Positions 1 through 49,751 are shown, counted from the stretch's first letter. The stretch is DNA of 54,686 nt from a virus (IMGVR_UViG_3300009182_005502:1-54686), one strand, 5' to 3'. Program-made: numbers and translations. The notes: generated by a model not told the origin, from the sequence alone.

Positions 1-25
1 AAGACTTCGATGCAATGTCATTCAT
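1..25 (-). CDS. 5' fragment of a gene running off the left edge (MNDIASKS...)
   Basis: ATG at 25-23, 11 nt after the stop of the kinase gene on the same strand; only 8 codons are visible. Confidence 0.5.
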
Positions 26-36
26 GTTAGTTGTAC

Positions 37-594
37 TCATAATTCGTAAAAATCGTTGTTGTGTATTTCTACCTCTTTATCTTGTAAAGCTACAAAGAAT
101 TGTCTAGCACGTTCTTCAACAGAACCACTAAGCCTTACAACAGGTATTGCATATGATTTAATAATACAATCAAAAGATTGCACTACACTATCAAAAAAAT
201 CTTTATTAACTGTTCGTTGACCATCCTCTATAAGAGGTAATTCCGGTTCAACATAAAAAATAATATCATATCTATCAATCATTACCAAAAATAAATCTCT
301 AATAATATCTAATACTTTAATATCTTTTATTAAAGCCATTGAATAAGCATAACCGTCTAAAGCACAACGATCATAAATCGTATCACCTTTTTCGTTAAGA
401 CGTTGAAGATGCTTAGTCATAATTGCAAGTTGAGTTACTTCATCCCCGTCTTCGTTAATATCATACCCCGCTTTCTGCATACCTCTTGTTAAAGAAGTTT
501 TAAACTTAAAATCAGTAAGTACATTTATATCTTGTAAATACTTTACAAGAGTAGTCTTACCTTGACTATGAGCTCCTGAAATAGCTATTTTCAT
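37..594 (-). CDS. P-loop nucleoside/nucleotide kinase-like protein (AAA_28/dNMP kinase type)
   Basis: N-terminal Walker A GAHSQGKTT, DR motif (YDRCALD), YDIIFY and D-G-x-R lid; paralog of 32409..33038. Confidence 0.75.
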   Translation of the reverse strand: MKIAISGAHSQGKTTLVKYLQDINVLTDFKFKTSLTRGMQKAGYDINEDGDEVTQLAIMTKHLQRLNEKGDTIYDRCALDGYAYSMALIKDIKVLDIIRDLFLVMIDRYDIIFYVEPELPLIEDGQRTVNKDFFDSVVQSFDCIIKSYAIPVVRLSGSVEERARQFFVALQDKEVEIHNNDFYEL

Positions 595-1130
595 GTATTA
601 TATACTAAATGCTTTTTCAAAAAAGTAAACCATAAATCCGTAGCATCTTTATGTAATTTTTCTATAACTTCTGATTCTGTCATATCTTCTATAAGAACAG
701 TACTATACTCTTTAATTTCTCCTCCATCAAGCTCAGCTGTACAACGGTGTATTGTATTACCTGACCACTTTAAACGTTCTGCTGCAGCACGCTTCTGAGG
801 ATCTTTTCCTTTAAGGTGAGGGTGAAGAAGTAGGTTAGCAGGATGTAAATTATATATTTCGTACTTTTCACATACTTCTGCTGGTACAATTCTAAGCCAC
901 CCGTGAAGAGTTACAAAAGAATTAAACGGTATATTATGCAGATACTCTCCTAGTGTAGTTTGTTTATTTACTTCAAATATTCTTTCTCCAGCAGAACTAA
1001 GCAATAGTGGATTTACACCTTCTAACTCTTGTTTGTTCGTAACAATAAAATCAGGATACCTACCTAGTTTTTCAGATATATTATATATCTCTGTTCCTGA
1101 TTGACTAAAGAAAGCTACCCAGGGTCTCAT
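591..1130 (-). CDS. PurN-like formyltransferase (candidate DpdN, preQ1 formyltransferase)
   Basis: FFSQSGT, LHGWLRIV, catalytic YNLHP and ELDGG motifs of GAR transformylase; start moved to ATG 1130, which overlaps the upstream stop as ATGA. Confidence 0.8.
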   Translation of the reverse strand: MRPWVAFFSQSGTEIYNISEKLGRYPDFIVTNKQELEGVNPLLLSSAGERIFEVNKQTTLGEYLHNIPFNSFVTLHGWLRIVPAEVCEKYEIYNLHPANLLLHPHLKGKDPQKRAAAERLKWSGNTIHRCTAELDGGEIKEYSTVLIEDMTESEVIEKLHKDATDLWFTFLKKHLVYNT

Positions 1131-1975
1131 TGGCAAAATTTCTTAAAGAGAGATGTATTATAAAAAGCTAATTCTAGCTGTTCGTAGTTAAGATTATGAT
1201 TAATAAATTCAACAAGTTTAACAGACCATTTTTCACTCAATCCATAAACAGGGTTGTATCTTTTACCGAGAATAGCACTTACAATAGGGTTTGACGTATC
1301 TATAGTACTAATAGAATTTTTAAATTGAGTATTATTATACAATTTAAATTCCCACGGAGTAGCACAACCTAGTAGATGATGTGGTTTTTTACTCATTAAA
1401 ACACCATCATTATAAAGACGGGTTAGTAAAGCTACTCTGCCCAGAGTATATCTTACCCAGTTATTAAATCCCATCCAATGTACCCATCTAGGTACAGGTT
1501 CAATTTCCTTTTCAAAAGTATCTATAGAATTCCATTCGTTAAGATAAAACGAATAATCAAATGAAATTGCTATTTTATCAACACGAGGAGCAATATAGTT
1601 ATAACAATCTACTATTTCTTCATACGTCTTGCCCTGTATAACACCTATCTTTTTTCCAGGAAGATTTGTATATTCATTTGTAAATTTTTTAAAGCTCTCA
1701 ATAGTGCCTTTAGAATCCTCTAAAACATCAGGTATAATATACTCTGTAGGACGTAGATCTTTAATCCAATGAGCGTACTCCTTTGAGTCATAAGCCTCTC
1801 CTAACTCAAAAATACTATTATCAAGAAGTACATGTCTGCCCATTTCGACAGACTCTTTATAAAAATTATAATAATCAGTATGAATTGGTAGAAGATGTAC
1901 TAAGCAATAATCGTAATCGTTATACCCTCTTGATGTAGTAAGAAGGCTAATAGGTGTTTCGTGACTAATAAGCAT
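1127..1975 (-). CDS. TGT-fold protein, DpdA3-like 7-deazaguanine insertion enzyme
   Basis: LLDNSIFE, IGVIQG, HHLLG and TIDTS motifs in the order seen in tRNA-guanine transglycosylase folds; start moved to ATG 1975 (MLISHE). Confidence 0.65.
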   Translation of the reverse strand: MLISHETPISLLTTSRGYNDYDYCLVHLLPIHTDYYNFYKESVEMGRHVLLDNSIFELGEAYDSKEYAHWIKDLRPTEYIIPDVLEDSKGTIESFKKFTNEYTNLPGKKIGVIQGKTYEEIVDCYNYIAPRVDKIAISFDYSFYLNEWNSIDTFEKEIEPVPRWVHWMGFNNWVRYTLGRVALLTRLYNDGVLMSKKPHHLLGCATPWEFKLYNNTQFKNSISTIDTSNPIVSAILGKRYNPVYGLSEKWSVKLVEFINHNLNYEQLELAFYNTSLFKKFCQ

Positions 1976-1986: not shown

Positions 1987-2015
1987 ATAATAATGTCAAA
2001 TATAAGAAATGTCAA
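1987..2015 (-). promoter_or_regulatory. Sigma70-type promoter TTGACA-N17-TATTAT
   Basis: Consensus -35, 17-nt spacer, -10 box ending 11 nt before ATG 1975. Confidence 0.7.
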
Positions 2016-2226
2016 GTATATTGTATATAAAAAAAGAATATACGTAGTAAAAGTAGGACCTGTTTATATCTGGAGTACAGCTGCTGCTATAAAAGAAAAC
2101 TGTGTTCACAAAGCTATTGAACATTTTAAAGTAAAATCTGAAAATTATTTAAAATATAAAGGCGCTGAAATTATAAGCTTATACGTTAAAGAAATAAAAA
2201 TTCAGGACAATTCAGGAAATACATAG
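1993..2226 (+). CDS. Hypothetical small basic protein
   Basis: Fills the gap between minus-strand genes; ATG 1993 preceded by late-promoter-like CATAAATA at 1973-1980. Confidence 0.45.
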   Translation: MSNIRNVKYIVYKKRIYVVKVGPVYIWSTAAAIKENCVHKAIEHFKVKSENYLKYKGAEIISLYVKEIKIQDNSGNT

Positions 2227-2852
2227 TTGTTTAAAAAATGCTTAGCATTTTCTTCTCCAACATCTACCGCTAAAGCTTTAAACGTTTTGTCGTTTTTCTT
2301 CTGACCTATACAATAACTATTCTGTTTTTCTATATTTGTTTTGTATCTTTCTTTAAAAGATTCTGAATATTTTAAAAACTCTTTTGTTATTGCTCTAGAA
2401 TTACACTGTAAAAAATCTATTTCTTCTTCTTGTGGAGATACACAAATAAAGTTTTCTCCAAAGAAATTTGCCCATTCAGGAAGTTTCCTTTCTGGGGACT
2501 TTATAGTATTTTTTAACTGAAGTAAGTTCTTTTGAAGAATCTGATTAGCATTAATAGGTGTAAGATCAAAAAAGAAACCTGTAATTTTATTACCGATTTC
2601 AATAAAGTCTAAACCTAATATAGGTATATCAATAGTAGCATTAGGAAAAATATTAGCGTGTACTACCCCTATTCTTTTAGTTTTATAATATTCTAAATGT
2701 ACATGTCTAAAAATAGGACTTGTATAGATATTATTTTGCCAAATTATATCAGTATTATACTGACCCTCGTAAAGAGTAGGACGATCTGGATATCCAAAAG
2801 CGTCTGTAAAATCTTGTGTTAAAAGATCAAAAAATTCTCTTAGCTTGTCCAT
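2202..2852 (-). CDS. pcyA: Ferredoxin-dependent bilin reductase, PcyA-like
   Basis: FRHVHLE, VHANIFP, PILGLD, RKLPEWANFF and QNSYCIGQKKNDKT motifs; adjacent to heme oxygenase. Confidence 0.8.
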   Translation of the reverse strand: MDKLREFFDLLTQDFTDAFGYPDRPTLYEGQYNTDIIWQNNIYTSPIFRHVHLEYYKTKRIGVVHANIFPNATIDIPILGLDFIEIGNKITGFFFDLTPINANQILQKNLLQLKNTIKSPERKLPEWANFFGENFICVSPQEEEIDFLQCNSRAITKEFLKYSESFKERYKTNIEKQNSYCIGQKKNDKTFKALAVDVGEENAKHFLNNYVFPELS

Positions 2853-3406
2853 ATCTCTTCAAACAAATCTATATGAAACTGAAAGAAAGCTTTTGTTTCA
2901 AAAACAATGTTATCATTTAAAGAATCGGGTGTATCTTTATCAAGAAGATATCTAACAGTAGTAATAACAGCCATAGGGTCCTTAGATTGATAAGTTTCAT
3001 TATAAGGGGCTTGAGACTTAGCGAGAATTCTACCTCCGTAGAAATCAGCTAACCACCTAAGATAAAAATCCGCCTTAAGAAGCTCTTCACTCTTTGTCCA
3101 AGAATTTGCAAGCCAGGCACGAGTTACCGTCTTAATCGTGCTCTTTGTATAGTTAGTATCAGCAATAAGCTTGTCAATATCTTTCTGTATAAAAGTACTT
3201 CTCTTTAAATCGTTATTTTCTAAAATTTCTTTTTGAAGAAGTCGTTGTTCAACTACCTGATAGACTGGTAGAAGATTAACAAGCAATTCTAGTAAATGTT
3301 CCTTCTTAAAGGAACCATCTACAAAGGATTGCATTAACGGATGTTGCTCAGAAGCTCTATGAAGTTCTGCCGTTTCTTCTTTTAAACGTGTCTGTAAATT
3401 ACTCAT
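2840..3406 (-). CDS. ho1: Biliverdin-producing heme oxygenase
   Basis: LKEETAELH (proximal His) and YLRWLADFYGGRIL distal helix motif. Confidence 0.85.
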   Translation of the reverse strand: MSNLQTRLKEETAELHRASEQHPLMQSFVDGSFKKEHLLELLVNLLPVYQVVEQRLLQKEILENNDLKRSTFIQKDIDKLIADTNYTKSTIKTVTRAWLANSWTKSEELLKADFYLRWLADFYGGRILAKSQAPYNETYQSKDPMAVITTVRYLLDKDTPDSLNDNIVFETKAFFQFHIDLFEEIWTS

Positions 3407-3439: not shown

Positions 3440-5983
3440 TCAAGAAAATAAATCAAATAAATCAGTTTGTACTTCTTTACCAATGATAGGTAGATGCCAA
3501 CCGATAGCATCATAAACAGCTTCAATAGGTGGAGCTACAATCTTACCGAACATCTTATCGTAATCAATTTTTATATTACCAAATTCTTTTGGATAATCTC
3601 CACTAAAAGCAATAGCATCTAAACTATACGGATTTTTTGATGCGTAAAAGAACTTTACCTTCTGTCCTGATTTGATTGATTCGTATTTCTTTGTAAGATT
3701 GAGTTTTTCTAAAAGAAAATTATACGCGAGGGCTGCTTTTACGTGACAGGGTGTTCCTTTATTAAATTTGTTTAAAGACGCACCGGCTGTATACTTGTCA
3801 GGTTCCTTAACAGCCTTTCTAAACGAAGCTTCTGATATACTAAGATTCTTAAAAAGATCATATGCTTCTCTAAATACTTCGTTTGTCTTTTTAACGTCTT
3901 TAGTGAGGAAGGCAGTCTCAATAGTTTTTTGTATAATTGCTTTTACAGGTTTCGGTGTTGTTGATCTAGCAAGCTCTACCCCGACGTACTTAAACTTCTT
4001 CATCGGTACACCTTCTTCATCTAGAATACGAAGAATATAACGCTTTTTCATTAAGAAGGAACCTACATCAGCAATAGCTTCACGCTTAAACACAAATCGA
4101 GGGTCAGCAGAGTTTAAGTCTTCTCGAGCCCAATCTAGAATCTTTTCTCCTAAATGTTTATCAATAGCATCTACAATAGTATGAACTTTAGGATTAATAA
4201 TACAATCTTCAGCAAGTTTAACTCCTAGCTTATCTAAAATAGGCTGTATAGTAATATAAAGGGAATCAGTATCACCGCTTAGAATCAATGACTCATTTAC
4301 TTTAAACGTATCTTTAGCAAATTGATTAATAATATTACCGCCGGCCTTAGCAACAGCTTGACCTGTTAAGGTAATAGAAGAGGCATTATCGATATCCATA
4401 AAGGCAGAATGCTTATTAGCAAACGTACCGTAGATAGAGTTCAAAAGAATCTTCAGCGTATATTGAAGGGTATCAAAGTATTGAATTGAGTCAGTTGTTT
4501 CTTTATCTTCTTTCTTAGTCTTTTTAAGCTCGATCATCTTTTTACGCGCATAGACACGCTCATCGTAAATACTATTAATCAAGTTAGGACAAACCCCTTT
4601 AAATTTTTGTGAGTATAGTACACCTGCTTTAGATAAAGATACATTTTCGTCTTTAAGAAACTTTTTCAGTTTATCGACGGTAAGTGTAAACGATCCACCA
4701 TTAACAAGCTTAATACCAATCTCTTTATCAGTTTCAATATCACCTGTTACAATCTTACCTAGCTTTGTTTCCGGTGAAATATTCAGCGTTATAATTGTAT
4801 TAGGGTATAGAGAGTTAACGTCAAAGCTTACTATAGCTTCTTTGAGTCCACGTTCAGGCTCTCGCACGTAGCCTCCCTCAAGCGCTTCTCTTATTGTTTC
4901 GTTTTTAAACGTAGGAATAACAAAGCCTTGTTTACGAGCTTGCAGAGACATTGCACCTGTAACAATAGATACCTTACCTAAAGCTCTTTCAAAATTAGTA
5001 CATCCTTTATAAGCAAGGAGACGAATAATTTTAAGGTAGTTAAGCTTATCTTCAAGCTTACGAAGCAGATCTACATCCTGAATGTTATAATCAACAAAGT
5101 TTTCCCAGTCTGTATCAGCTAGAGTGGAAAGGTTAGTAGCGTTAATAGCAAGTTTACCTTCATTAAGTTCATACTCAGCAATATAGTTAAGGGAAAACGA
5201 CTCTCTGTCTCCCTTAGAGTATGTTTTATAAATCTCCATGTAGTCCAAGCAACTAATACCTGAGATATACCAACGACCTACGTCTTTACCAAACTTAGAA
5301 AAGTTTTCTCGATAGTTAATTTCTCTTACCGGGGAAAGTTGTTTAATAAACTCATCTCCTAATAAATTTTTAGCACGATTAATAATGTAAGGAATATCGA
5401 ACATCTCTGTATTCCATCCTGTTAAAATATCTGGAGGGTCTTTTTTCCAGAAATTTACAAATTTCTCAAAGAGATCTTCTTCGCAATCACATTTGTAATA
5501 TGTTACGTTAGGTAGTTTCGGTTTATAATCGTTTTTTAAACCCCAGGTATGAATCTTACCGCTAATAGTATCAAGAATTGTAATAAGAGTTACAGGATCT
5601 TTAGCTTTAGCAGGAATAGGAAACTCATTTGGTGAGTAAGTTTCAATATCAATAAAATAAACCTTTAACGGAAACTTACTAAACTCTTCTTTATGCACAT
5701 CCTCCTTGAATGTTTCGATAAGGAATTGCTGATCGACCGGTAAATTACCAAAAAGACGTGTATTCTTTGTTTCGTTTACGAACTTATTGCGTTCAAAAGA
5801 GTTTCTAAAATAATGCTTTTTAAGAGATGTCTTAAAAATTGAAGTTCCATCTCCTGCTTTATCATTTTCTGTATAAAGAAAAGGTGTAAACGGTACTTCA
5901 GTATCTATACGGTCTCCGTCTTCTGTCCAAGTACGAAGATATACAATTCCTTCTTTAGGGTTATAGGTAGCGTTTCTATACAC
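3440..5983 (-). CDS. gp43: Family B DNA polymerase (T4 gp43-like)
   Basis: Exonuclease DIET, GWN..FDIPY, YNIQD; polymerase SFDVNSLYP, KILLNSIYG, GDTDS, KKRY; GTG start. Confidence 0.97.
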   Translation of the reverse strand: MYRNATYNPKEGIVYLRTWTEDGDRIDTEVPFTPFLYTENDKAGDGTSIFKTSLKKHYFRNSFERNKFVNETKNTRLFGNLPVDQQFLIETFKEDVHKEEFSKFPLKVYFIDIETYSPNEFPIPAKAKDPVTLITILDTISGKIHTWGLKNDYKPKLPNVTYYKCDCEEDLFEKFVNFWKKDPPDILTGWNTEMFDIPYIINRAKNLLGDEFIKQLSPVREINYRENFSKFGKDVGRWYISGISCLDYMEIYKTYSKGDRESFSLNYIAEYELNEGKLAINATNLSTLADTDWENFVDYNIQDVDLLRKLEDKLNYLKIIRLLAYKGCTNFERALGKVSIVTGAMSLQARKQGFVIPTFKNETIREALEGGYVREPERGLKEAIVSFDVNSLYPNTIITLNISPETKLGKIVTGDIETDKEIGIKLVNGGSFTLTVDKLKKFLKDENVSLSKAGVLYSQKFKGVCPNLINSIYDERVYARKKMIELKKTKKEDKETTDSIQYFDTLQYTLKILLNSIYGTFANKHSAFMDIDNASSITLTGQAVAKAGGNIINQFAKDTFKVNESLILSGDTDSLYITIQPILDKLGVKLAEDCIINPKVHTIVDAIDKHLGEKILDWAREDLNSADPRFVFKREAIADVGSFLMKKRYILRILDEEGVPMKKFKYVGVELARSTTPKPVKAIIQKTIETAFLTKDVKKTNEVFREAYDLFKNLSISEASFRKAVKEPDKYTAGASLNKFNKGTPCHVKAALAYNFLLEKLNLTKKYESIKSGQKVKFFYASKNPYSLDAIAFSGDYPKEFGNIKIDYDKMFGKIVAPPIEAVYDAIGWHLPIIGKEVQTDLFDLFS

Positions 5984-9089: not shown

Positions 9090-9950
9090 CTACCAATAGC
9101 AACCACCTTCAATATTTTTATATTTTTGTGGTGTTTCCTCAATAGAGGGACTAATCCAATGTTCATTATAAAAATGTTTACCTATATTTCCTTCACTCCA
9201 TCTTCCTCCTTTAACACCAAATAGAAGTTGTAGAGGTCCTCCAACGTGTATAGCTTTTTTACCGTTTTTTCTAGCATGGGCAACCAACGGTAAGGACGAG
9301 GCACCAGAACCAACAAGCATTATATCGTAGTCAATAGTATCCATCAACGATTTATAATGTCTAACCATATCTAACCAACTATTAAATTCGCTAGGTTTAT
9401 CGATACCTGGAGAATGAGGATGCTTAAGAGTATAGAGATTAAATGTTGGTAAAATTCTAGGATCTTTCCAAATAAGATGTCTTTTATCGTACTGTTTCTT
9501 TATTGATTCTGTAAACGGTGAAATAACTAAAACGTTTTTACCTTCAAGATATTCAGACCAAGGGGATCCTGAATAAAAGGGTTCAATACTTTGAAGATCA
9601 ATTAACTCACAATTTGGTGAATAACTTTTTATATAAGATGCTTCAAAAGACATATTAAACATAGACCACCAAGCAAGAGAGTCTATATGTTTAATACTAT
9701 CTGTAACTTCCTTAATAAAATCAATACGAGCTTGCTCTGTCTGGGGAAATACACCAGCGTTGTTATATATTTCATCAACAACATTAGGCATCCATTGAAC
9801 TGATTGATTATTTTGCTTATACATATAGTAATTGTATATACACATTAATTCGCAATTGCCTATTTTACCGCAACCAAAAGGTTCCTCTTTCTTAAATTTA
9901 TTATAAAGATAAAAAGAACTATCAACAAACTCTTTTTTTAAAAATTGCAT
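9090..9950 (-). CDS. Putative glycosyltransferase (GT-D-like, polysaccharide-cluster protein)
   Basis: PWSEYLEGKNVLVISPF and AIHVGGPLQLLFG..GGRW motifs typical of glycan-locus proteins. Confidence 0.55.
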   Translation of the reverse strand: MQFLKKEFVDSSFYLYNKFKKEEPFGCGKIGNCELMCIYNYYMYKQNNQSVQWMPNVVDEIYNNAGVFPQTEQARIDFIKEVTDSIKHIDSLAWWSMFNMSFEASYIKSYSPNCELIDLQSIEPFYSGSPWSEYLEGKNVLVISPFTESIKKQYDKRHLIWKDPRILPTFNLYTLKHPHSPGIDKPSEFNSWLDMVRHYKSLMDTIDYDIMLVGSGASSLPLVAHARKNGKKAIHVGGPLQLLFGVKGGRWSEGNIGKHFYNEHWISPSIEETPQKYKNIEGGCYW

Positions 9951-9951
9951 T

Positions 9952-11037
9952 TTATAATTGAGAGAAAAGATTTAAAATATCCGACTTTACTTTTTCGTAA
10001 CTATAAAAATTATTATATTTCCAATTAGCTTTAGCTACATATTCTTTATAAAGATTTTTATCTGTTTCAAGTTGTTTCATCCTATTAGCGTAATCATTAA
10101 CATTATTTTCTACAAATCCACATCCTTCAACTTGTTCAACTTGTCCCATATTGCCTGCCTCATGCGTAATAACAGGTAAGTCATTCGATAGTGCTTCAAT
10201 AATAGCTAACGAACAAATCTCTCCATCACTTCTGGCGTGTGTATAGACATTTAAACTACTTAAAAAGTTATGTATATTTTCAGAGTTTGAATCATGCTCA
10301 ATAAATTTAATATTTTTTATATTAAGATGTCTTGCGTATTCTCTATGTTTTAAAGACCCTCCAAGCAATAAAAAGTAATTATTTTCGTTTTCAATTTGCT
10401 TATACGCCTCAAGCGATAAAGGTGAAAAAATACTTTCACTATTTCTTTGATGAAACCCGTATACAAATGTATCTTCAGATATACCAAGTTTTTTGCGAAC
10501 TGTAGAAGGTTTTTTAGGTGGTACTTCAACTACTACAGGTATAACAAGAAGTTTACTTGAATCACCTCCATTATTTACCCAAATATTAGCCTGCCAGCGA
10601 CTTATTAAGGCTTGTTTAAAAAAATTAGGTTGATCGAATGTATAAATACCGTTTTGTATATTAATTACTCTTGTCTTTTTAATAACATTAAACGGGTACT
10701 CTTCAACCCCTCTATTACCTATAACAATAGCATCATATTTACTTTCGTCAAATTTATCCCAAAGATCTGTATCTATCCAGGGTTGTTCATCTCTGCCCCC
10801 GATACGTCCTCCTACTTTAACTTCAATTGTATTAATACCGGCTTCTTGACAAATTTTAAGCATTAAAGGATCATTTTCGGCATGTCTATGACCGTCTGTA
10901 AAAGGGCAGTTGGTTGTGTAGTAATAATCAACATCGTACGAATTATTAACAAGAATTTTAGCTATGGACTGTAAATGTTTTTCAGTACCACCTGCTGCCA
11001 TACCACAAAATTTAATAAACGCAATTTTTTTCGACAT
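9952..11037 (-). CDS. Glycosyltransferase family 4
   Basis: GGTE N-terminal motif; GEICSLAIIEAL (EX7E) followed by LPVIT. Confidence 0.85.
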   Translation of the reverse strand: MSKKIAFIKFCGMAAGGTEKHLQSIAKILVNNSYDVDYYYTTNCPFTDGHRHAENDPLMLKICQEAGINTIEVKVGGRIGGRDEQPWIDTDLWDKFDESKYDAIVIGNRGVEEYPFNVIKKTRVINIQNGIYTFDQPNFFKQALISRWQANIWVNNGGDSSKLLVIPVVVEVPPKKPSTVRKKLGISEDTFVYGFHQRNSESIFSPLSLEAYKQIENENNYFLLLGGSLKHREYARHLNIKNIKFIEHDSNSENIHNFLSSLNVYTHARSDGEICSLAIIEALSNDLPVITHEAGNMGQVEQVEGCGFVENNVNDYANRMKQLETDKNLYKEYVAKANWKYNNFYSYEKVKSDILNLFSQL

Positions 11038-11038
11038 A

Positions 11039-11674
11039 CTATAACGATATTAGCGCAGGTGAATAAAATGTTTTATGCGCAAATATTTGATATCTATTTG
11101 GTTCGTGCTCTGTTATTATATTTTTACATTGCTTATAACCGTGATCGTTAAGATAACTAAAGTCGTCTGTTTTAATAAGTGTGCTTTCATCATACGGATG
11201 TATTTCAAGTAATATAAGATTGAATTTTGTGTAATTAAAATCAATACCTAATAATACATGATGTTCGTATCCTTCTGTATCAAGTGTCAGGAAATCAACA
11301 TGTGTTAAATTATGCTTTCTTAAGAGTGTATCTAAAGGACAGCATGGTACCTGATAACTTCTATATTGTCTTAAATGTAGAGCTGTTACGCCTGACTCTA
11401 GTCCTGAATTAGCGTGACCAAAATCAATAGTGTTATGCGGATAAGTTTTTTCTACTAAGGCATAATTTTCAAGTATACTCTTAGGTCTAGTTGTTTTATA
11501 TATTTCGTTATAATCTGTTATAGGTTCAACTAATAGACCTGACCATCCACAGTTTTCTAAAAAAGAAGTATTATTTTGATCATAAGGGTTGCTTGCTCCT
11601 GCTTCTACAAAAATTCCATCATTTTTTTGATTAAAAATATTATAAACAATACGATCTATTCCATGCTGTGACAT
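11039..11674 (-). CDS. FkbM-family methyltransferase
   Basis: GIFVEAGA, GWSGLLVEP, DFLTLDTEGYE. Confidence 0.9.
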   Translation of the reverse strand: MSQHGIDRIVYNIFNQKNDGIFVEAGASNPYDQNNTSFLENCGWSGLLVEPITDYNEIYKTTRPKSILENYALVEKTYPHNTIDFGHANSGLESGVTALHLRQYRSYQVPCCPLDTLLRKHNLTHVDFLTLDTEGYEHHVLLGIDFNYTKFNLILLEIHPYDESTLIKTDDFSYLNDHGYKQCKNIITEHEPNRYQIFAHKTFYSPALISL

Positions 11675-11681
11675 AACGATA

Positions 11682-11709
11682 ATTATACTATGTATATGTA
11701 ATTGTGCAA
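11682..11709 (-). promoter_or_regulatory. Sigma70-type promoter TTGCAC-N16-TATAAT
   Basis: Perfect -10 box ending 7 nt before ATG 11674. Confidence 0.6.
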
Positions 11710-11720
11710 TAAATTACATT

Positions 11721-12488
11721 TTAACCATAAGCTTCGCTAAATATTTCAACATTGTTTATAAGTGTATCTAATGTTTCATTGTTTAGCAAATTACATTCTA
11801 ATGTAACGTATTTATTATAGTTATATTTTTTAATTACAGAAGATATTTCTTTATTTTTTAATATATCTATACTCTTTAAGTACGGTGAACTAATATGTAT
11901 ATGTTCTATTAAACTTGCTCCGTTTTCAAAAATATGTTCCAAGCTCTCACTATTAAATATAGTCGTACTAATATCTAAAACTAATTTTAGATTTTCATGC
12001 TTAACATTATTAATAAAATTAATTGCTTCTGTTGTATTGGTAATAAAATTACAACCGTATTCTTTTGCATTAGCTTCTAAACAAACTATACAATCAAATG
12101 TTTTAGCCATATCTCCTATTTCTTTAAAAATTTCTATAGCTTTTTCAATTTTAAAATTATTAAAATCTTTAATAAATCTATTTTTTGGTGAACCGAAAAC
12201 TAAAGGTTTAATTTTTAATTTATTTGCTAATTTAAAAACTTCTTTAAGATGATTTAAGATTATTTGTTTTTCTATTTCTCCATCAAACAAAGAAACAGGC
12301 GGGCATGTATATAATAGAGATTGCATACCTACCATTTTTATATCAGCTTTATTATAATCGTTTTCTATCTCGTCGTTTATAAGAGACGGGGAAACATCAA
12401 CATTAGATATTTGATAACTTTTTAAGATATCGATAGCTTTTTTATTTTCAGATTGATTCCACCCTATATTAGATACGCTTAGATTCAT
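11721..12488 (-). CDS. Sugar phosphate isomerase/epimerase (xylose isomerase-like TIM barrel)
   Basis: SNIGW, LVFGSPKNR, CLEANAKEYGCNF, HIHISSP. Confidence 0.8.
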   Translation of the reverse strand: MNLSVSNIGWNQSENKKAIDILKSYQISNVDVSPSLINDEIENDYNKADIKMVGMQSLLYTCPPVSLFDGEIEKQIILNHLKEVFKLANKLKIKPLVFGSPKNRFIKDFNNFKIEKAIEIFKEIGDMAKTFDCIVCLEANAKEYGCNFITNTTEAINFINNVKHENLKLVLDISTTIFNSESLEHIFENGASLIEHIHISSPYLKSIDILKNKEISSVIKKYNYNKYVTLECNLLNNETLDTLINNVEIFSEAYG

Positions 12489-13230
12489 ATTCTTTTTTAA
12501 AATTTTTTAAATCCTCAATAATTTGTTTTTTATTATAAAAATATTTTTGTTTATTAGGGGCGTACTTAGAATGAAAATCGTTTTTAAAAAACGTATTATT
12601 GGGATCTAAATTAATATTAAAAACATCTTTATAAAAATCTCTAATTAGTAACGGTTCAGTAGCTAAGTTAACTAACTTATATTCTTTATCTATAAAGTTT
12701 AATAAATCAGCTCCTAAATTTTTTACATTGTAAATTTGTACAATAGCATTTCCATTTACTTTATGTACTTCATTATTATTCAATGCATCGAATATTATAT
12801 TCTTTTTAAGATCGTGACCGTACATAATAGGTAATCTTACTATTAAACAGGAAGGAAAAATATTTCTTATAGCTTTTTCTAAAAAAAATCTATTTTGACC
12901 ATAATGATTATTATTAATATCCTCTACAAATGTATCCTCATCTACGTCATACGGTTTTTGATAAACATCAATTGTTGAAAGTAATATAAACTTTTTTGCT
13001 TTAATTGTTTTTATATTTTCGATAAAAGATAGTATATTATTAAAATCCTCCTCGGGGTTTTTATTAACTAGCCATCTTGTTGATGAGTTACCCGCTGATA
13101 CAACTAAATCAAATTCTTTATTTTTTATTTCTAATATATTTTTAGAATTATAAAGAAAATTAAAATTAATCTGTTTTATAAGGTTTTGACCTATAAAACC
13201 GGTATAACCTATTAAAGCATTATTACTCAT
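12469..13230 (-). CDS. NAD-dependent epimerase/dehydratase family protein
   Basis: ALIGYTGFIG Rossmann motif, LSTIDVY, YGQNR. Confidence 0.85.
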   Translation of the reverse strand: MSNNALIGYTGFIGQNLIKQINFNFLYNSKNILEIKNKEFDLVVSAGNSSTRWLVNKNPEEDFNNILSFIENIKTIKAKKFILLSTIDVYQKPYDVDEDTFVEDINNNHYGQNRFFLEKAIRNIFPSCLIVRLPIMYGHDLKKNIIFDALNNNEVHKVNGNAIVQIYNVKNLGADLLNFIDKEYKLVNLATEPLLIRDFYKDVFNINLDPNNTFFKNDFHSKYAPNKQKYFYNKKQIIEDLKNFKKEYESKRI

Positions 13231-14299
13231 CTTGTATTATTTTAGCAAACTCAGAGGCCATGAGTGGAGCTGATATTAATTTACCTTCTTTTATAGAATA
13301 AAAATCTATTTCGTAATCATGTTTTACAATTTTTGTTACTCTAGAATCTCCTTTTGCACTTAGGGGTATTGGTCTATTACCGTATAAAGAATATTTGTAT
13401 TTTAATTTGCTAAAGAAAGGATAATACTTTAAACCGTGTTTTAATATTTTTTTCCAATTACTTTTTAAAGCTGTACTCTGTCTATATAGTATACCTGTTT
13501 TTTTCTTAATAACAGAATTAACAACATCGTAAATAAGATAAAGATTTTTGTATCCGGAGTATGGTAATATACTAATAAACGGTCCATCCATTACTGTTAG
13601 TGCAGGTATTTTTGTAGTTGATTCAACAACTGCTATTTCTGTTTCTTCAAAATAATATCTTGTATATCCATCTTTAATACCAAACAGTTTAAGTACATTA
13701 TTACTATTAGTATATGTACAATTTATTATTAAATCTGTGTTTATTGTTATATCTTTGTCAAATGATTTTAAAATAATATTTTTATTAATTTTCTTAACTT
13801 TTTTAATTTTGAAATTTAAAACTATTTTTACTTTTAAATCTTTTAATTCTTTTTTAATTTTTTTTCTAAACTTAGGAACATTAATACAAGCCTCATTAAC
13901 TTTAAAAGAATCTTCTATATCAATTCTATTTAAAAAGTTTTGATCAGGCCAAGAGGTATTGCAACTAAGACCCTCTTTTAGCATTACTTTTTTAAATAAT
14001 TTAGAGTCTATTTTAGATTTTTTTTCTATTACATAATAAAAATCAGGAAATATAAGACAATCTTTATATTTTTTTATAAAAAAATCGTAACCGCTTTTAC
14101 ATTCATGAATTGTTTCTACCGATCTAGGGTAATGATAACCTAAATGTATTCTATTATGCGTGCAATTTGAAGTACCTAATAAAATATCTTTGTTTGTATC
14201 AACTATTACAACATTATTATTTTTCGCTAATTCTAATGCTAAAGTAACTCCGTGAATTCCTGCTCCAATAATTAAAATATTTTTTCTACTATAATTCAT
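13223..14299 (-). CDS. FAD-dependent oxidoreductase (DAO-like)
   Basis: IIGAGIHG, RIHLGYHYPRS, TVMDGPF. Confidence 0.85.
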   Translation of the reverse strand: MNYSRKNILIIGAGIHGVTLALELAKNNNVVIVDTNKDILLGTSNCTHNRIHLGYHYPRSVETIHECKSGYDFFIKKYKDCLIFPDFYYVIEKKSKIDSKLFKKVMLKEGLSCNTSWPDQNFLNRIDIEDSFKVNEACINVPKFRKKIKKELKDLKVKIVLNFKIKKVKKINKNIILKSFDKDITINTDLIINCTYTNSNNVLKLFGIKDGYTRYYFEETEIAVVESTTKIPALTVMDGPFISILPYSGYKNLYLIYDVVNSVIKKKTGILYRQSTALKSNWKKILKHGLKYYPFFSKLKYKYSLYGNRPIPLSAKGDSRVTKIVKHDYEIDFYSIKEGKLISAPLMASEFAKIIQDE

Positions 14300-15147
14300 A
14301 GTATATTCTTAACCATAAATTCAATTAAGGGAGCTATAGTAGGTTCATTACCTTCAAACAAATAACTGGATGTTATAGATTTATATGCAACATCATCATT
14401 ATCCAATTCAATTATCCTCTCAACAAACTTGTCTACGCTTTTAAAGTTATAAAGATTTAAAAACGCATTCTTGTTGTAATCCTTTTCGCAATTATTATCA
14501 GCCCAGTAGAGAGGTAAACATCCGGCAGCTTTAGCATGAGGCATTCGATCTGTATAATAACCAGGAGCAATAGTGTTTTCAAAGCAAATATTAAATTTGT
14601 AATTTGATATTAAGTTTATTTTAACATCTTCACCATAAAACCAATTATTAAATGGCTTACCAAAGCAGTGTACTTGTTTATATTTACCTAATTTTGCAAC
14701 AATTTCATACCTGTGAGGAGAATCAGTATTAAAAACAATAGCACAAAATTCGTTTTTCGGTTTGTGCATTAAAGGGTTATCTTTTATATCTTGAAAAGGT
14801 ATAACATATTGCGGATTTCCGTAATTTACCTTATTAAACCAATCTATTTGTAACATCCAAAGAGGTAGGCGAAAATTCTTACCGTTGTAATCTTCAAAAT
14901 CAAACGTGAGAGAGTAATCACATTCGTTAAAATTTGGTCTATGATTTTCACCTGTATAAAATACTTTTTTTGTTTTAGTGCGATTTGCACGATGATGATC
15001 ATGACCAAAACATGAATATATTAATAAATCTGTCTCATCGTTAAGAGGTGTTATTTCAACATCAGGTCTAATAGATTTAATTAAATCCCTAAAAAAATTA
15101 TTTTCGTGTTGAAACCCTCCCCAAAAATCACAAAATGACAGTTTCAT
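14296..15147 (-). CDS. Glycosyltransferase family 10 (alpha-1,3-fucosyltransferase-like)
   Basis: FYTGEN, YKFNICFEN..PGYYT motif; start moved to ATG 15147 (MKLSFCDFW). Confidence 0.85.
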   Translation of the reverse strand: MKLSFCDFWGGFQHENNFFRDLIKSIRPDVEITPLNDETDLLIYSCFGHDHHRANRTKTKKVFYTGENHRPNFNECDYSLTFDFEDYNGKNFRLPLWMLQIDWFNKVNYGNPQYVIPFQDIKDNPLMHKPKNEFCAIVFNTDSPHRYEIVAKLGKYKQVHCFGKPFNNWFYGEDVKINLISNYKFNICFENTIAPGYYTDRMPHAKAAGCLPLYWADNNCEKDYNKNAFLNLYNFKSVDKFVERIIELDNDDVAYKSITSSYLFEGNEPTIAPLIEFMVKNIL

Positions 15148-15151
15148 AAAT

Positions 15152-15763
15152 TTATTTCTTACAAGCAGCGATATAAGTACCGCACCACCACTCATTCCTA
15201 TTACCTGCACTTGTTAAATATTCAGAATACTCAATTTTTATTTTCTTATCACTTAAGGCCATTTGTGTAGCACTCTGTATTTTTTTCTCATCGTAATCAT
15301 CAACAACTAATATAAATTCATCTGCTAGAGATTCATAAAAGTAAATTATAGAATCGTAGTGTTGTTCCCAGAGATGACCTCCGTCATACAAGTATAAATT
15401 AATATCAGTGATATTATTAGCTTTTAAATCTATAGTAAAAGAGTCTTGATTAATAAAATTAGGTTCTTCTTTTATAATATTTCTAAAATTATTATAAAAT
15501 TCAGTTGTACAATTACCATGACAGCTCCAATCGTCTACTGTAACATAAAATTCAGGTTTATTACCGTAAATAGCCGAAATAACCGTTGAACCTTTCCATG
15601 TACCTATATCTAAATAACGTGTTTTACTATCTACTAAATTATTTAGTAAATGTCTAAATTTTGTTGATGACATACCTTCAACACTTAGTATTTCCGGAGG
15701 TAATTTTGATTTGTGTTGTTTAGCTAAATCAATAGCATTTATTATTTTTGTAATGTTATTCAT
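15152..15763 (-). CDS. Class I SAM-dependent methyltransferase
   Basis: YLDIGTWKGST, YDGGH, VVDD. Confidence 0.8.
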   Translation of the reverse strand: MNNITKIINAIDLAKQHKSKLPPEILSVEGMSSTKFRHLLNNLVDSKTRYLDIGTWKGSTVISAIYGNKPEFYVTVDDWSCHGNCTTEFYNNFRNIIKEEPNFINQDSFTIDLKANNITDINLYLYDGGHLWEQHYDSIIYFYESLADEFILVVDDYDEKKIQSATQMALSDKKIKIEYSEYLTSAGNRNEWWCGTYIAACKK

Positions 15764-15768
15764 AATTT

Positions 15769-16389
15769 TTATCTTATACTTGTTGGAAATTTAAAATAAG
15801 GTGTTTCACCGATAGATCCTTGATGCAAACCAGGCTCTAACCAACATGTCTTAAGGTTATGCTCTGTAATAATATCATTAAGTTTGTGATCGTAACCCCT
15901 ATAAGGTCCTTTATGTAAACTATCTAAAACAATATTAATACTTTTTGCTGTATACATTATAGCGTGTGCACATCGTGTTCTAAACCTTGGTTCATAATAA
16001 ACGTTTGAACCGTTTAATACGGTAGGTCGTTCGTTAAACGCTGTACCTATCATTAATAAATCTCCATTAAGATTTTTAAATTGTGAAAAAAATGTATTAA
16101 AATATTCTTTAAAAGAATTGCAAAGGATTATATCATCTTCAAAAATAATACAATATTCACTATTAGTAGATTGTGCTCTTTTAAGTGCTTGTTCAAATTT
16201 TAAGCAAAGAGAGTACTCTCTTACTGTAATTGTATCACTATCAGGTTTTTGAATTTCTTCAGGAGGAAAGTCTTCCACAAATTCATAATATAAATCTTGT
16301 TTTTTAAATTGTTCTTCTAAAAAAATCTTACGATCAACATTTGGTTTATGATGAACAATATAAATAGGTATTTTATTTTGTATTAACAT
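15769..16389 (-). CDS. Glycosyltransferase family 25-like
   Basis: IYIVH..DRK, SLCLK, IIFEDD. Confidence 0.75.
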   Translation of the reverse strand: MLIQNKIPIYIVHHKPNVDRKIFLEEQFKKQDLYYEFVEDFPPEEIQKPDSDTITVREYSLCLKFEQALKRAQSTNSEYCIIFEDDIILCNSFKEYFNTFFSQFKNLNGDLLMIGTAFNERPTVLNGSNVYYEPRFRTRCAHAIMYTAKSINIVLDSLHKGPYRGYDHKLNDIITEHNLKTCWLEPGLHQGSIGETPYFKFPTSIR

Positions 16390-17194
16390 AATCCAGCCAT
16401 TCTTTAAAGCGCCAGCCTGTACCCTTAGAGGTATCTCCTCCTACAAAGTGTCTTGCTATAACTTTATCTTTTGTCGTTCTAATAATATCGTACGTATCGG
16501 GTACTCCGTTGTTACCTGTTTCTTCAACAAGATGAGTTACATTCCATTCAACTGGTAATATTTCGGTATTATCCATAATTTCGTCTAACTCAAAGATAGT
16601 ATTTTCCTTTCTTGTATGGAACCCGTAATTTGGTAAATCAAAATATGGGACCCAGCTATGAGCGGGTAAACCTACACAATGATAATAGGCATCCTGATCG
16701 TGATCATAAAGAGGGTGATACCCGTTAAAGTTTTCTTTCCAAACAGGGAAGCTTCTAAGTTTCTCATATCTTTCCTTTGAAAGAATTGCGTTAATTAGCT
16801 TCTTTGTATAATCGTTAATCTTTAACGAAAATAAACCTGTATTGTGAGAATTGCCTGAATCAATTGCGTAGGTAAAACTCTTATTTGTAATAAGAGGTTG
16901 ATCTAGCTTAGCAATAAAAACGTCGCAATCAGTATACGTAACTATATCCCCGTCTTTAAGTTTACCTGCCTTAATACCTTCATTAATAAGCCACCAACGG
17001 GAGAACCTCTTATCGTTACTAAGATCGTGCGGTATAACAATAGGTTGAGGAACTGAAGAGGTCTTAGGTGTTACTTCGATAAATTTAAAATCGTGAAGCT
17101 TACAATATTCTCGAATTCTGGGTGCATTATATGTTTCATAGAGATACTGTCTGTTATCAGGGTACTCTGCTAGTGTAATAAAATATTTGTTCAT
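16373..17194 (-). CDS. GT-A glycosyltransferase (GT34-like)
   Basis: DCD (DxD) motif, HNTG, DQ, LPVEWN, RHF. Confidence 0.6.
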   Translation of the reverse strand: MNKYFITLAEYPDNRQYLYETYNAPRIREYCKLHDFKFIEVTPKTSSVPQPIVIPHDLSNDKRFSRWWLINEGIKAGKLKDGDIVTYTDCDVFIAKLDQPLITNKSFTYAIDSGNSHNTGLFSLKINDYTKKLINAILSKERYEKLRSFPVWKENFNGYHPLYDHDQDAYYHCVGLPAHSWVPYFDLPNYGFHTRKENTIFELDEIMDNTEILPVEWNVTHLVEETGNNGVPDTYDIIRTTKDKVIARHFVGGDTSKGTGWRFKEWLDYVNTK

Positions 17195-17979
17195 AATGTT
17201 TGTTTAATAAGATCTCTATAAAAGCCAAATTCTGATTTAGATTTGTTTTTTTGCTGAAGATCACTATATTTACTCAACATATCAATATTATACAAGTCTT
17301 CCCATTTATCAATAAACAAAATTGGACAATCTTTAAAAAAAATCATCGGTACACTTTTTAAAACAATAGGTACTGTACCCACGTAAATTGATTCCCATAT
17401 TCGATGACAATCTATACTATTACCGGGCGGGGAAACAACAAAATTAAATGTTGCTAATGTTTCAAGATAATTTCGATAATTCTTCTTATCTTTTTCAACA
17501 TAGAGACCTTTAACATCCTTTAAGATATTATTAACACCTTGTCTTTGATTGAGATTTGTTCCTTGATCGAAATTAGAATATATTAGCCCTGTTTTTTTAT
17601 TTTCATTATTAGCTATATCAAGTACAGCTTGCTTATTACCGTGAGGCCAGCATTCATTAGCAATACCAATTGGTATTGTTTGTAGCTTGTCATGTATAAT
17701 GTGACAATTCATTCCAAACCAGCGTTTTAGAAAACGATTATTTAATATCGGTGTACATGATTCATTAATAGGTGCATCAGCATCATGTGTTATTAACACA
17801 AAATCGTAATTTATATGTGGTAAATAACGGTGTTGAAATTCTTGTATATAATCTGTCTTAACAAAAAATATATTTTTTTCAGGAGTAATTTGAATACCGG
17901 AATTACGTCTTTCACTCATACAATTATGAGCTAAGGATATAAATTTGTCTGGAGTAATAATATCGTCAACAATTAACAT
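17191..17979 (-). CDS. Exostosin/GT47-like glycosyltransferase
   Basis: IPIGIAN, FVVSPPGNSIDCHRIWES..GTVPI. Confidence 0.7.
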   Translation of the reverse strand: MLIVDDIITPDKFISLAHNCMSERRNSGIQITPEKNIFFVKTDYIQEFQHRYLPHINYDFVLITHDADAPINESCTPILNNRFLKRWFGMNCHIIHDKLQTIPIGIANECWPHGNKQAVLDIANNENKKTGLIYSNFDQGTNLNQRQGVNNILKDVKGLYVEKDKKNYRNYLETLATFNFVVSPPGNSIDCHRIWESIYVGTVPIVLKSVPMIFFKDCPILFIDKWEDLYNIDMLSKYSDLQQKNKSKSEFGFYRDLIKQTL

Positions 17980-18886
17980 TATCTAAGAAAGGTATGATAG
18001 CTTTTTTGTTATGCATATGCAAATTAAAGATGGGTATTTGAGTGTTAGTTGCATTAACAATAACATACGGTTTTTTATTTACAAGAGTAGGAGTAATTTG
18101 TTTATTAATAATTTGCTCTCCTACAAAATGTCTCTGCTCAAAGTAACCTGCAGGATGACCTTGATTGGTACCAAAAAAATACATACCGTAAGGATTAGGA
18201 TCTATAACTGTCTGTAACTTATCAAAATTTTCTGAATACGTACCACTAGGTACGCACGGTAGCATTTTAAAATTTTTCTTATTACGGTAAATAATATCTA
18301 AGAAAGCCATATCTGTTATCCAGTTTGCAAAATGACCTGTATACGAGCGAAGTTCAGCTTCTCCTTTTAAAAAAAGTTTTTTATGTAAATTAAAAAGTGT
18401 TAAAGCTGCTTGTTTGTCTTTTATAAACATAAAGCAAGGAGCACAAGCATTTGGAGCTTCATTACTATACCCAAACTCTACATCATTAAATATAGAATCT
18501 AATTTTGAGACTGGTTCAAATAAAATATTATCAGCTTCGACATGTAACACATTTTTTAAATCATTTTTAATAACACAAATTAATAATAAAATAACTCTTA
18601 TTGTTGTATTAAACCAGAACGGGTCGTTCATATAACGGCTCCATTTTTTATTTAAAATATCAATAATTTCTTTATACTCTTCAGTATCTTTAATTGTATC
18701 TACATTAATACAGGTATCATCAAAACAGTATTTACTTTGAGTAATAAAAAAAGAATTATCTGTTAATTTTTTATTATGCTTATATGTAGCTACGTAGTAA
18801 TCCGGTAAATTAGTATACGTATAAGGATTAACAGCTGCTTCCCTATAAAAATTATTATCTAAAAAAACGTATAAAAGATTATTCAT
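17966..18886 (-). CDS. Putative glycosyltransferase
   Basis: FWFNTTIR, LHVEADN, TDM, FNLHMH; glycan-cluster context. Confidence 0.5.
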   Translation of the reverse strand: MNNLLYVFLDNNFYREAAVNPYTYTNLPDYYVATYKHNKKLTDNSFFITQSKYCFDDTCINVDTIKDTEEYKEIIDILNKKWSRYMNDPFWFNTTIRVILLLICVIKNDLKNVLHVEADNILFEPVSKLDSIFNDVEFGYSNEAPNACAPCFMFIKDKQAALTLFNLHKKLFLKGEAELRSYTGHFANWITDMAFLDIIYRNKKNFKMLPCVPSGTYSENFDKLQTVIDPNPYGMYFFGTNQGHPAGYFEQRHFVGEQIINKQITPTLVNKKPYVIVNATNTQIPIFNLHMHNKKAIIPFLDNVNC

Positions 18887-31465: not shown

Positions 31466-31659
31466 AAGTTATAGATACTAAATTTGAAAAACTAGTATCA
31501 TCTAATGACGGTAAAATAACTTTTTTTACCTTATTAGCTCTTTTTGGTATATTAATATATGCTTTAATATATAATGTAATTACATTAATTTTTACACCTC
31601 AAGGATTAACAACCATTGTAATCGTAGCCCTTTTATATAAACTCATTTATGCCCATTGA
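31450..31659 (+). CDS. Small membrane protein
   Basis: Two hydrophobic segments; coupled between queD and queE. Confidence 0.6.
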   Translation: MENKLEVIDTKFEKLVSSNDGKITFFTLLALFGILIYALIYNVITLIFTPQGLTTIVIVALLYKLIYAH

Positions 31660-45642: not shown

Positions 45643-45644
45643 AA

Positions 45645-48369: not shown

Positions 48370-48370
48370 G

Positions 48371-49746: not shown

Positions 49747-49751
49747 TCTTC

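Follow-up and report, generated by a model that had tools for sequence, protein, structure and literature searches.

Introduction

The proteins named DpdA3 are encoded by the Flavobacterium phage immuto and by CP220-type Campylobacter phages (Cui et al. 2023, Nucleic Acids Research (NAR), PMC10516641). In immuto DNA, deoxyguanosine (dG) is replaced by fdPreQ1, 7-(formylamino)methyl-7-deazaguanine, and in the Firehammervirus CP220 the modified nucleoside dADG replaces 100% of dG (PMC10516641). As reported there, complete replacement is found with DpdA3 phages only, while the level reached with other DpdA proteins is 0.1-30% (PMC10516641).

Here we describe the left end of the virus sequence IMGVR_UViG_3300009182_005502, a complete IMG/VR record of 54,686 bases that by CheckV estimate corresponds to about 25% of a genome; the whole of this stretch is called the window below. 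Its left end carries what is very probably a DpdA3/DpdN module, coupled to a gene for a P-loop kinase. A first-pass annotation made from the sequence alone had named DpdA3 and DpdN as companions of fdPreQ1 DNA in a Flavobacterium phage, and the precedent was well chosen, as immuto encodes orthologues in the same order. The cluster is thus a further carrier of the described system, and the linkage of dpdA3 to the kinase gene offers a clue to the function of DpdA3 that can be put to the test.

A four-gene operon headed by dpdA3

Three minus-strand genes occupy positions 37..1975 of the window, each start overlapping the preceding stop as ATGA. The first, dpdA3 (1127..1975, 282 amino acids (aa)), begins with an ATG at 1975, and its start methionine is common to all 26 aligned homologues. 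The second, dpdN (591..1130, 179 aa), has its ATG at 1130 in overlap with the TGA of dpdA3, and the ATG of the third, the kinase gene (37..594, 185 aa), overlaps the TGA of dpdN in the same way. These three coupled genes agree with the first-pass annotation, in which a fourth had gone unnoticed: an ATG at 40..38 overlaps the stop of the kinase gene, again as ATGA, and opens the 5' end of a predicted queF (1..40, minus strand), of which 13 codons (MSTTNMNDIASKS) precede the contig end. In the related locus L003, DNA identical to the window end continues into a 303-aa open reading frame (ORF) that starts with the same 13 residues and is 39% identical to immuto QueF. Because the fourth coupled start continues into QueF in this relative, the unit is best read as a four-gene translationally coupled operon, dpdA3-dpdN-kinase-queF, of which the window holds three genes and the queF stub.

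The operon has all four genes in the order seen in immuto. In the phage collection, immuto DpdA3, DpdN and 'thymidylate kinase' pair with the three window proteins as closest relatives (42.7%, 45% and 37% identity), and the QueF proteins of the window's relatives are 38-39% identical to that of immuto. Unlike those of immuto, the window genes are joined by ATGA overlaps, and no small ORF separates dpdA3 from dpdN. CP220 resembles the window in having DpdA3 (40% identity) followed by an orthologous kinase (33%, E = 2e-29) and differs in having neither DpdN nor QueF, in carrying a gene with HD and AAA_33 domains upstream, and in its end product, dADG.

Upstream of dpdA3 lies a sigma-70-like motif, TTGACA-17-TATTAT (1987..2015, minus strand), which matches the consensus at 11 of 12 positions and whose core is invariant in the nine close relatives that could be aligned. 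The motif of the reported consensus promoter is therefore present and conserved, while its role as the dpdA3 promoter is plausible and putative, since promoter-like sites are frequent in this AT-rich stretch (28 observed against 17.2 +/- 3.8 in shuffles), about 11 nt separate the end of the -10 box from the start codon, and the motif region is also coding on the opposite strand. The latter overlap involves a small divergent ORF without Pfam match (1993..2226, plus strand, 77-81 aa) between dpdA3 and the DNA polymerase gene, which is kept in 10 of the 83 sources described below.

DpdA3 has the fold of a guanine transglycosylase

DpdA3 of the window has no Pfam or NCBIfam match. By tblastn it shares 42.7% identity over 99% coverage with the 'DNA guanine transglycosylase' (DpdA3) of immuto (E = 1e-60) and 40% with a hypothetical protein of CP220-type phages (CP220 gp056, E = 1e-46). 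An AlphaFold model built with 26 homologues as input had a pLDDT of 93.0 and a pTM of 0.90. With this model, TGT entries made up all 50 Foldseek matches listed (E = 1.4e-7 to 1.7e-6, TMq 0.55-0.64), and VIA-align placed ArcTGT (Z 16.9) and the DNA preQ0 insertase DpdA (7ui4, Z 16.4) on top, followed by bacterial TGT (15.3) and QTRT2 (14.7); other TIM barrels reached Z values of at most 14.2, a modest margin below the TGT family. The modeled protein thus has a TGT-type TIM-barrel fold, as had been claimed for 1127..1975, and the comparison with TGT and DpdA structures that had been suggested as a check leads to the same family. The link rests on structure, because a profile of the 26 sequences searched against the PDB sequences gave four matches, at E values of 0.18 or above, and none was a TGT.

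Three aspartates, D52 (LLDNSIFE), D83 (IPDVL) and D226 (IDTSNP), are invariant in all 26 sequences, and by eye their motifs resemble LTDSGGFQ, IFDEC and MFDCVMP of E. coli Tgt. On the other hand, none of the aligned DpdA3 proteins (262-295 aa) shares an invariant cysteine where TGT has its zinc site, and the chain ends about 55 residues past D226, so the zinc subdomain of TGT is absent. The bacterial DpdA/DpdB system and the phage proteins DpdA1 and DpdA2, which insert preQ0 after replication, share the TGT-superfamily fold with DpdA3 and are longer (317-413 aa); DpdA3 differs from them in having no conserved cysteine motif. The isoelectric point, taken as a proxy for DNA binding, was uninformative (5.87 for DpdA3, 5.97 for E. 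coli Tgt).

Natural variants of the protein exist. Two of three longer DpdA3 relatives (P0121, P0122 and P0123) are DpdA3-QueF fusions of 531 and 568 aa, and one of the three carries a 318-aa N-terminal extension without family match; a fusion of DpdA3 to the kinase was not found in the search for fused forms. Where the fusion P0121 has LRSNCEITNQPDWG, QueF of L003 (1989..2900) has LRSRCRHTKQKDTG.

DpdN is a PurN-type formyltransferase

The dpdN product matches PF00551 (E = 2.9e-9) and is 45% identical to immuto DpdN (YP_010114479, E = 2e-47). Its alignment to E. coli PurN, the glycinamide ribonucleotide (GAR) formyltransferase, by hhalign (96.9% probability, E = 1.9e-10) spans PurN residues 80-171, the C-terminal catalytic half. 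N94 and H96 fall on NIHPS and D135 on DELDGG of PurN, and all three are invariant in the 24 aligned members, in keeping with the claim of the first-pass annotation that this PurN paralog has intact N-x-H/D catalytic residues. DpdN differs from PurN in its length of 179 aa, in a family-specific GKDPQ insert that is invariant in 24/24 members, in an FFSQTGSE N-terminal loop, and in that hhalign detected no match for the N-terminal 79 residues of PurN. By its sequence, the protein is best regarded as a PurN-type formyltransferase and an orthologue of DpdN.

The protein database contains 4003 relatives of DpdA3 at E <= 1e-3. The distribution of the module in IMG/VR was assessed with an alignment of DpdA3 sequences as query, as a search for related loci with the single protein had found none. 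The IMG/VR census comprises the best 80 of 434 DpdA3 relatives, none below 49% identity to the query, and therefore under-samples the family; the neighbourhood counts are based on 83 sources. A dpdN gene stands beside dpdA3 in 61 of them, including 60 of the 80 IMG/VR loci, immuto and the window. In 55 IMG/VR loci the sequence extends 3 kb or more past dpdA3; DpdN and QueF are both encoded in 45 of these, QueF only in six and neither in four, while DpdN without QueF does not occur.

With these data the probable product is fdPreQ1 DNA. Group 1 of the DpdN proteins is defined by the presence, in the same genome, of DpdA and of the pathway as far as QueF (PMC10516641), and in the window dpdN sits between dpdA3 and the kinase gene with queF downstream. 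Three uncultured phages with DpdN are already listed in the same paper, in which formylation of preQ1 or dPreQ1 by DpdN is a prediction (PMC10516641). Guanine could therefore be replaced by a 7-deazaguanine other than fdPreQ1, for example if DpdN formylates something else and dPreQ1 or another derivative remains, and a second kinase and many ORFs without assigned role leave room for further chemistry. We consider this unlikely, as the window protein keeps the catalytic Asn, His and Asp at 45% identity to immuto DpdN, DpdN is never without QueF in the 55 loci, and in immuto a 324-Da nucleoside was assigned to fdPreQ1 while dPreQ1 is reported as not detected (PMC10516641).

A kinase gene accompanies dpdA3

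The third gene encodes a P-loop kinase, as the first-pass annotation had it: the product matches AAA_28 (E = 4.9e-13, 50.1 bits against a cut-off of 27) and PHROG 2107 (E = 6.9e-23) and has the Walker A motif GAHSQGKT. Residues of the P-loop, a DR motif and an Arg-bearing lid (G7, G12, K13, T15, D75, R76, D124 and R127) are invariant in 25/25 sequences. The protein shares 37% identity with the 'thymidylate kinase' of immuto and 33% with CP220 gp057 (E = 2e-29). When the family profile was compared with the PDB, the deoxynucleoside kinase (dNK) 8puu came first (E = 4.3e-7), followed by NadR, deoxyguanosine kinase (dGK) and thymidylate kinase (TMPK). The structural model (pLDDT 87.7) gave VIA-align Z values of 18.1 and 16.5 with the ribosylnicotinamide kinase domain of NadR, 15.8 with vaccinia TMPK, 15.7 with Drosophila dNK and 15.5 with human dGK; over all comparisons with NadR, TMPK, dNK and dGK the range was 18.1 to 14.0, with Foldseek E values of about 1e-6. 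Much lower values were obtained with the tRNA-acting P-loop proteins PSTK (9.8) and Kti12 (9.2). As the protein scores far below the cut-offs of the NCBIfam dTMP-kinase and NadR models, it is an orthologue of neither. By every comparison of sequence and model, it is predicted to be a small-molecule nucleoside or nucleotide kinase.

The kinase gene is a constant companion of dpdA3. It was found downstream on the same strand in all 66 loci with at least 1.9 kb of downstream sequence, in 31/31 DpdA3 clusters at 90% identity and in 13/13 at 70%. The 55 loci that reach 3 kb or more past dpdA3 all have it too, including the four that have neither DpdN nor QueF.

The association extends to distant relatives. 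Four DpdA3-like genes (hmmsearch E = 1.5e-21 to 2.2e-14) lie in 7-deazaguanine clusters, each abutting a P-loop ORF. In Aeromonas phage Ahp1 the neighbour is a T4 gp1-type deoxynucleoside monophosphate (dNMP) kinase (PF21448, 1.7e-17), followed by a gene of the dCTP-deaminase/dUTPase (DCD) fold (1.6e-12). The neighbour in Chryseobacterium phage MA9V-3 is kinase-like and matches AAA_18 (1.5e-7) and AAA_33. The P-loop ORFs of Weizmannia phage Youna2 and Bacillus phage BSTP12 are linked weakly to the kinase family (hhalign 88.5% and 37%).

Genes of the dNTP-pyrophosphatase type also recur near the module. Upstream of dpdA3, immuto has the PRA-PH/MazG-like gp208 (3.1e-10) and CP220 has gp055 with its HD and AAA_33 domains, and in the lineage of G002 a DCD-fold gene (2e-16) lies within the cluster. 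DpdA3 of Cellulophaga phage phiST, which was not retrieved by our sequence searches, is reported to adjoin a dUTPase/MazG-like gene (PMC10516641).

As a control, the neighbourhood of DpdA1 was examined in phage 9g. Its 12-kb cluster contains no match to the kinase hidden Markov models (all E > 1) and no ORF with a Walker A motif on the gene strand, whereas DpdA3 is always accompanied by a kinase gene (66/66). About a quarter of G is modified in phage 9g. DpdA1 of this phage resembles DpdA3 in its linkage to FolE, QueD, QueE, QueC and polymerase genes. The control is limited to this single phage because a tblastn search of the phages with E. coli Tgt retrieved tRNA-type Tgt genes and not DpdA1 or DpdA2.

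The 7-deazaguanine pathway is encoded at a distance

The first-pass annotation had placed queD and queE some 30 kb from the operon, and both are found there on the plus strand. The queD gene (30998..31465) is of the 6-carboxytetrahydropterin synthase type (PTPS, 3.9e-17; TIGR03367, 1.1e-9), and its product is 47% identical to immuto QueD. In place of the QueD signature CxxxHGH it has CxxxHGY, a variant that is also present in QueD of immuto, of the complete relative G001 and of two other T4-like relatives, and not in the QueDs of the Bacillus and Weizmannia phages. The queE-like radical-SAM gene (31649..32407) matches Fer4_12 (1.3e-5), contains the motifs TIEGEG and GGEP, and is matched by five QueE NCBIfam models at 4e-11 to 1.3e-7, all below their cut-offs. 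Its identity to the gene in the corresponding position of G001 is no more than 28%, whereas its neighbours are 67-71% identical, which suggests replacement by a different QueE type.

Family searches for FolE-I, FolE2 and QueC found none of them in the window, a weak negative given that the window represents about 25% of a genome. G001 encodes FolE2 (1.5e-73), QueC (2e-66), QueD, QueE, QueF and both kinases. As to the search for folE, queC and queF that had been proposed, the start of queF is in the window, FolE2, QueC and QueF are encoded in G001, and FolE, FolE2 and QueC were not found in the window itself. With the TGT fold present and the full pathway encoded in G001, neither a missing fold nor a missing pathway speaks against base modification. 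Compared with immuto, the pathway is scattered, as queD and queE lie 30 kb off and folE2 and queC are seen only in G001.

Directly after the queE-like gene follows a paralogue of the operon kinase (32409..33038, plus strand; AAA_28, 4.5e-12), which falls in the same BLAST cluster and is 71% identical to a copy in the syntenic position of G001. This second kinase could belong to NAD salvage instead, because a gene for a 512-aa protein with an NMN-adenylyltransferase-like domain (29107..30645, plus strand) lies 2 kb upstream. CP220 too has a second copy of the kinase, beside a DCD-like ORF.

Base exchange before or after replication

From the gene content we infer a route in which DpdA3 would act on nucleotides. 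GTP would be converted to preQ0 by FolE2, QueD, QueE and QueC, the first and last of which are seen only in G001, and QueF would reduce preQ0 to preQ1. The Asp triad of DpdA3, of TGT type, would swap the guanine on deoxyribose for the 7-deazaguanine, the substrate being free dGMP, or possibly dG, rather than DNA. DpdN would then formylate the aminomethyl group from formyl-folate on the 5'-phospho-deoxyriboside, as PurN does on GAR, and the kinase would phosphorylate the modified dNMP back towards the deoxynucleoside triphosphate (dNTP) pool, from which the phage PolB would incorporate it. DpdA3 would accordingly be a deoxynucleotide or deoxynucleoside:7-deazaguanine base-exchange enzyme with a dedicated kinase and not a DNA transglycosylase, and full replacement of G by fdPreQ1, dADG or dDG would take place before replication; we put this forward tentatively.

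The model has functional analogies in known pathways. In the hydroxymethyl-dC (hmC) pathway of T4, the dCTPase gp56, the dCMP hydroxymethylase gp42 and the dNMP kinase gp1 act together, and the dZ pathway of phage S-2L comprises MazZ, PurZ and DatZ. The logic proposed to be shared is to make a dNMP, modify it, re-phosphorylate it by a phage kinase and polymerise it, and the T4 combination of a dNMP-modifying enzyme and a dNMP kinase would be transferred to guanine. A kinase of the gp1 family is indeed the neighbour of the DpdA3-like gene in Ahp1. The parts list, with a base exchanger, a PurN-like protein whose relatives use a 5'-phosphoriboside as substrate, a kinase and in several lineages a dNTP-pyrophosphatase-like protein, has the shape of classical pre-replicative pathways. 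In contrast to T4 and S-2L, the modifier would be a base-exchanging TGT-fold protein, for which there is no nucleotide-level precedent, and no dGTP-excluding enzyme was identified in the window lineage.

Several observations lead us to favour the nucleotide-level reaction. The kinase is constant, its family is found in the same 14 Campylobacter and four Flavobacterium records of the phage collection as DpdA3, its relatives are small-molecule nucleoside and nucleotide kinases, distant DpdA3-like genes abut kinases of other families, and genes of the dNTP-pyrophosphatase type recur. The DpdA3 barrel is small and without an invariant cysteine, and the 9g control has no kinase. Replacement to 100% fits as well, as do the free nucleoside form of ADG in CP220-infected cells and the failure to reconstitute DpdA3 activity in E. 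coli, where attempts with dpdA3 only were negative (PMC10516641). In the main text of this paper, to which the check was confined, the words 'kinase', 'phosphoribosyl' and 'pre-replic' do not occur (PMC10516641). Among the papers listed in literature searches for DpdA3, a kinase or a nucleotide-level route, only the 2023 NAR paper and its preprint treat DpdA3.

The alternative keeps the same module and product and assumes that DpdA3 swaps every G in the DNA after replication, that DpdN formylates the free base or the DNA, and that the kinase is accessory. The kinase could then recycle the released guanine, with a phosphoribosyltransferase (PRTase) converting guanine to GMP, the kinase GMP to GDP, and the resulting GTP serving for new preQ1; alternatively, it could be an ATP-using helper, as DpdB is for bacterial DpdA. 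Modification after replication can be complete, as in the glucosylation of hmC in T4. DpdA is among the top fold matches of DpdA3, no dGTPase was found in the window lineage, and a xanthine/guanine-type PRTase that fits recycling is encoded in the window (51151..51651, minus strand; PF00156, 5.9e-10; NF006613, 87 bits, below the cut-off of 138) as well as in immuto and G001. However, the PRTase was found in two of the five DpdA3 phage genomes searched, whereas the kinase is universal. For a helper ATPase it would also be unexpected that a member of a dNMP-kinase family replaces the partner in Ahp1 and that the fold is nearest to nucleoside and nucleotide kinases (Z 15.5-18.1) rather than to PSTK or Kti12. 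The absence of a kinase from the single DpdA1 control and the failure of DpdA3 to modify DNA in E. coli (PMC10516641) are likewise difficult to combine with this explanation.

A number of points weigh against the nucleotide-level route. Every TGT-family transglycosylase characterised to our knowledge acts on a polymer. The mapping of the catalytic aspartates was made by eye, and hhalign of the DpdA3 family with E. coli Tgt gave a probability of only 1.5% over 24 columns. Adjacency to a DNA polymerase gene is also true of DpdA1 in 9g and does not discriminate. The kinase family, moreover, is not exclusive to DpdA3: its matches in the phage collection also include 52 Streptomyces phage records at 24-27% identity. 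In the one Streptomyces record that was opened, phage LukeCage (L101, 4210..5621), a member of the family (1.6e-27) is encoded without DpdA3. Its gene start/stop-overlaps that of a 263-aa protein for which the record gives a methyltransferase annotation and in which an FkbM-like motif is recognised by eye; the two may be another pair of base modifier and kinase. The authors who described DpdA3 themselves propose post-replicative insertion (PMC10516641).

Complete replacement by a pre-replicative route also needs exclusion of dGTP. Family searches for MazG and PRA-PH were negative for both the window and G001, as was a search of G001 for an HD domain; DCD was not found in the window and gave only a sub-threshold match in G001 (2.8e-5). 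Two genes would be possible accessories, the PRTase for guanine salvage and a GMP reductase (39369..40310, minus strand; NF003966, 387.8 bits against a cut-off of 344) for draining guanine nucleotides. Neither is general: the low count of the PRTase applies here too, and the GMP reductase is present in G001 and in none of the four other DpdA3 phage genomes searched (1/5).

On balance we favour exchange at the nucleotide level, before replication, and regard it as close to an even chance; the published exchange in DNA follows closely and is a serious possibility. For the whole explanation, with every step including the nucleotide-level one, the chances are somewhat short of even.

The module lies in the replication block of T4-like phages

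The neighbour upstream of dpdA3 is a T4-type family B DNA polymerase (PolB; 3440..5983, minus strand) with 31-35% identity to polymerases of T4-like cyanophages, and in 49 of the 83 sources PolB and dpdA3 are no more than 8 kb apart. In the window lineage the module stands between PolB and UvsX, and the loci of the relatives carry UvsX, a gp41-type helicase, gp32, UvsY and gp23. To judge from these genes, the phage backbone is T4-like and the module belongs to its replication block. At about 30%, the GC content is low. Of the complete relatives, the closest is G001 (218.4 kb, rated 100% complete, PolB 85% identical), which is collinear with the window over its positions 157.5-188.6 kb. A megablast search of the phage collection with window positions 1-6000 gave no match. 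Parts of the stretch were contained in seven of the eight sequencing runs listed (six studies, Logan contigs), five of the seven being labelled freshwater metagenome; no RNA run was among the listed runs that contain it. In further contrast to immuto, which has PolA, the window has PolB, lacks an adjacent MazG-like gene, and has the second kinase, the GMP reductase and bilin genes.

This setting bears on the view that the genes are auxiliary metabolic genes for queuosine in host tRNA or for purine or NAD salvage and leave the phage DNA untouched. The kinase fold is nearest to the ribosylnicotinamide kinase of NadR, the NMN-adenylyltransferase-like gene is at hand, and PurN, GMP reductase and PRTase are families of purine metabolism. 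Nevertheless, we find such a role very improbable, as the three proteins are orthologous to a module whose carriers have fully modified DNA, their genes sit between PolB and UvsX, DpdN has no match to the N-terminal 79 residues of PurN, and the 282-aa DpdA3 has no Tgt parts beyond the barrel.

Other features of the window and its relatives

Between dpdA3 and PolB, positions 2202..3406 (minus strand) encode a heme oxygenase (1.6e-12) and a bilin reductase of the ferredoxin-dependent type (PF05996, 1.2e-21), both absent from the collinear G001. The reductase shares only 25-30% identity with PcyA/PebS genes of cyanophages and also matches one record of a Pelagibacter phage. Two islands of about 11 and 8 kb (9090..20482 and 41437..49627, minus strand) interrupt the otherwise collinear replication genes. 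They encode glycosyltransferases (GT1, GT2, GT10 fucosyltransferases, GT25 and a GlcNAc transferase), methyltransferases and an oxidoreductase. The two islands have 23 ORFs, of which a single one (46977..47513) is matched by an ORF in G001.

Seven tRNA genes (49674..51101, minus strand) specify Lys-UUU, Asp-GUC, Arg-UCU, Leu-UAA, Met-CAU, Asn-GUU and a 94-nt Ile-UAU; the Asp and Asn tRNAs are of the GUN class, the target of queuosine modification by TGT. A SegE-type GIY-YIG endonuclease is encoded at 25889..26320. In relatives (L080, 7004..8461; L045, 9926..12561) the gp41-type helicase carries Hint/intein domains, and a 356-aa ORF interrupts UvsX in one locus.

Implications

With this locus, the fdPreQ1 module is assigned to the replication block of T4-like phages that are abundant in freshwater, which may have consequences for the standard sequencing of such phages, for their restriction and for the calling of modified bases. 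The kinase comparison bears on the question of how DpdA3 phages reach 100% replacement and why DpdA3 alone is inactive in heterologous tests. If base exchange does take place at the nucleotide level, DpdA3 would be the first enzyme of the TGT fold with a free nucleotide as its substrate, and the module would provide a new enzymatic route to 7-substituted 7-deaza-dGTPs. Such a pre-replicative route would also explain why the reconstitution of DpdA3 in E. coli failed.

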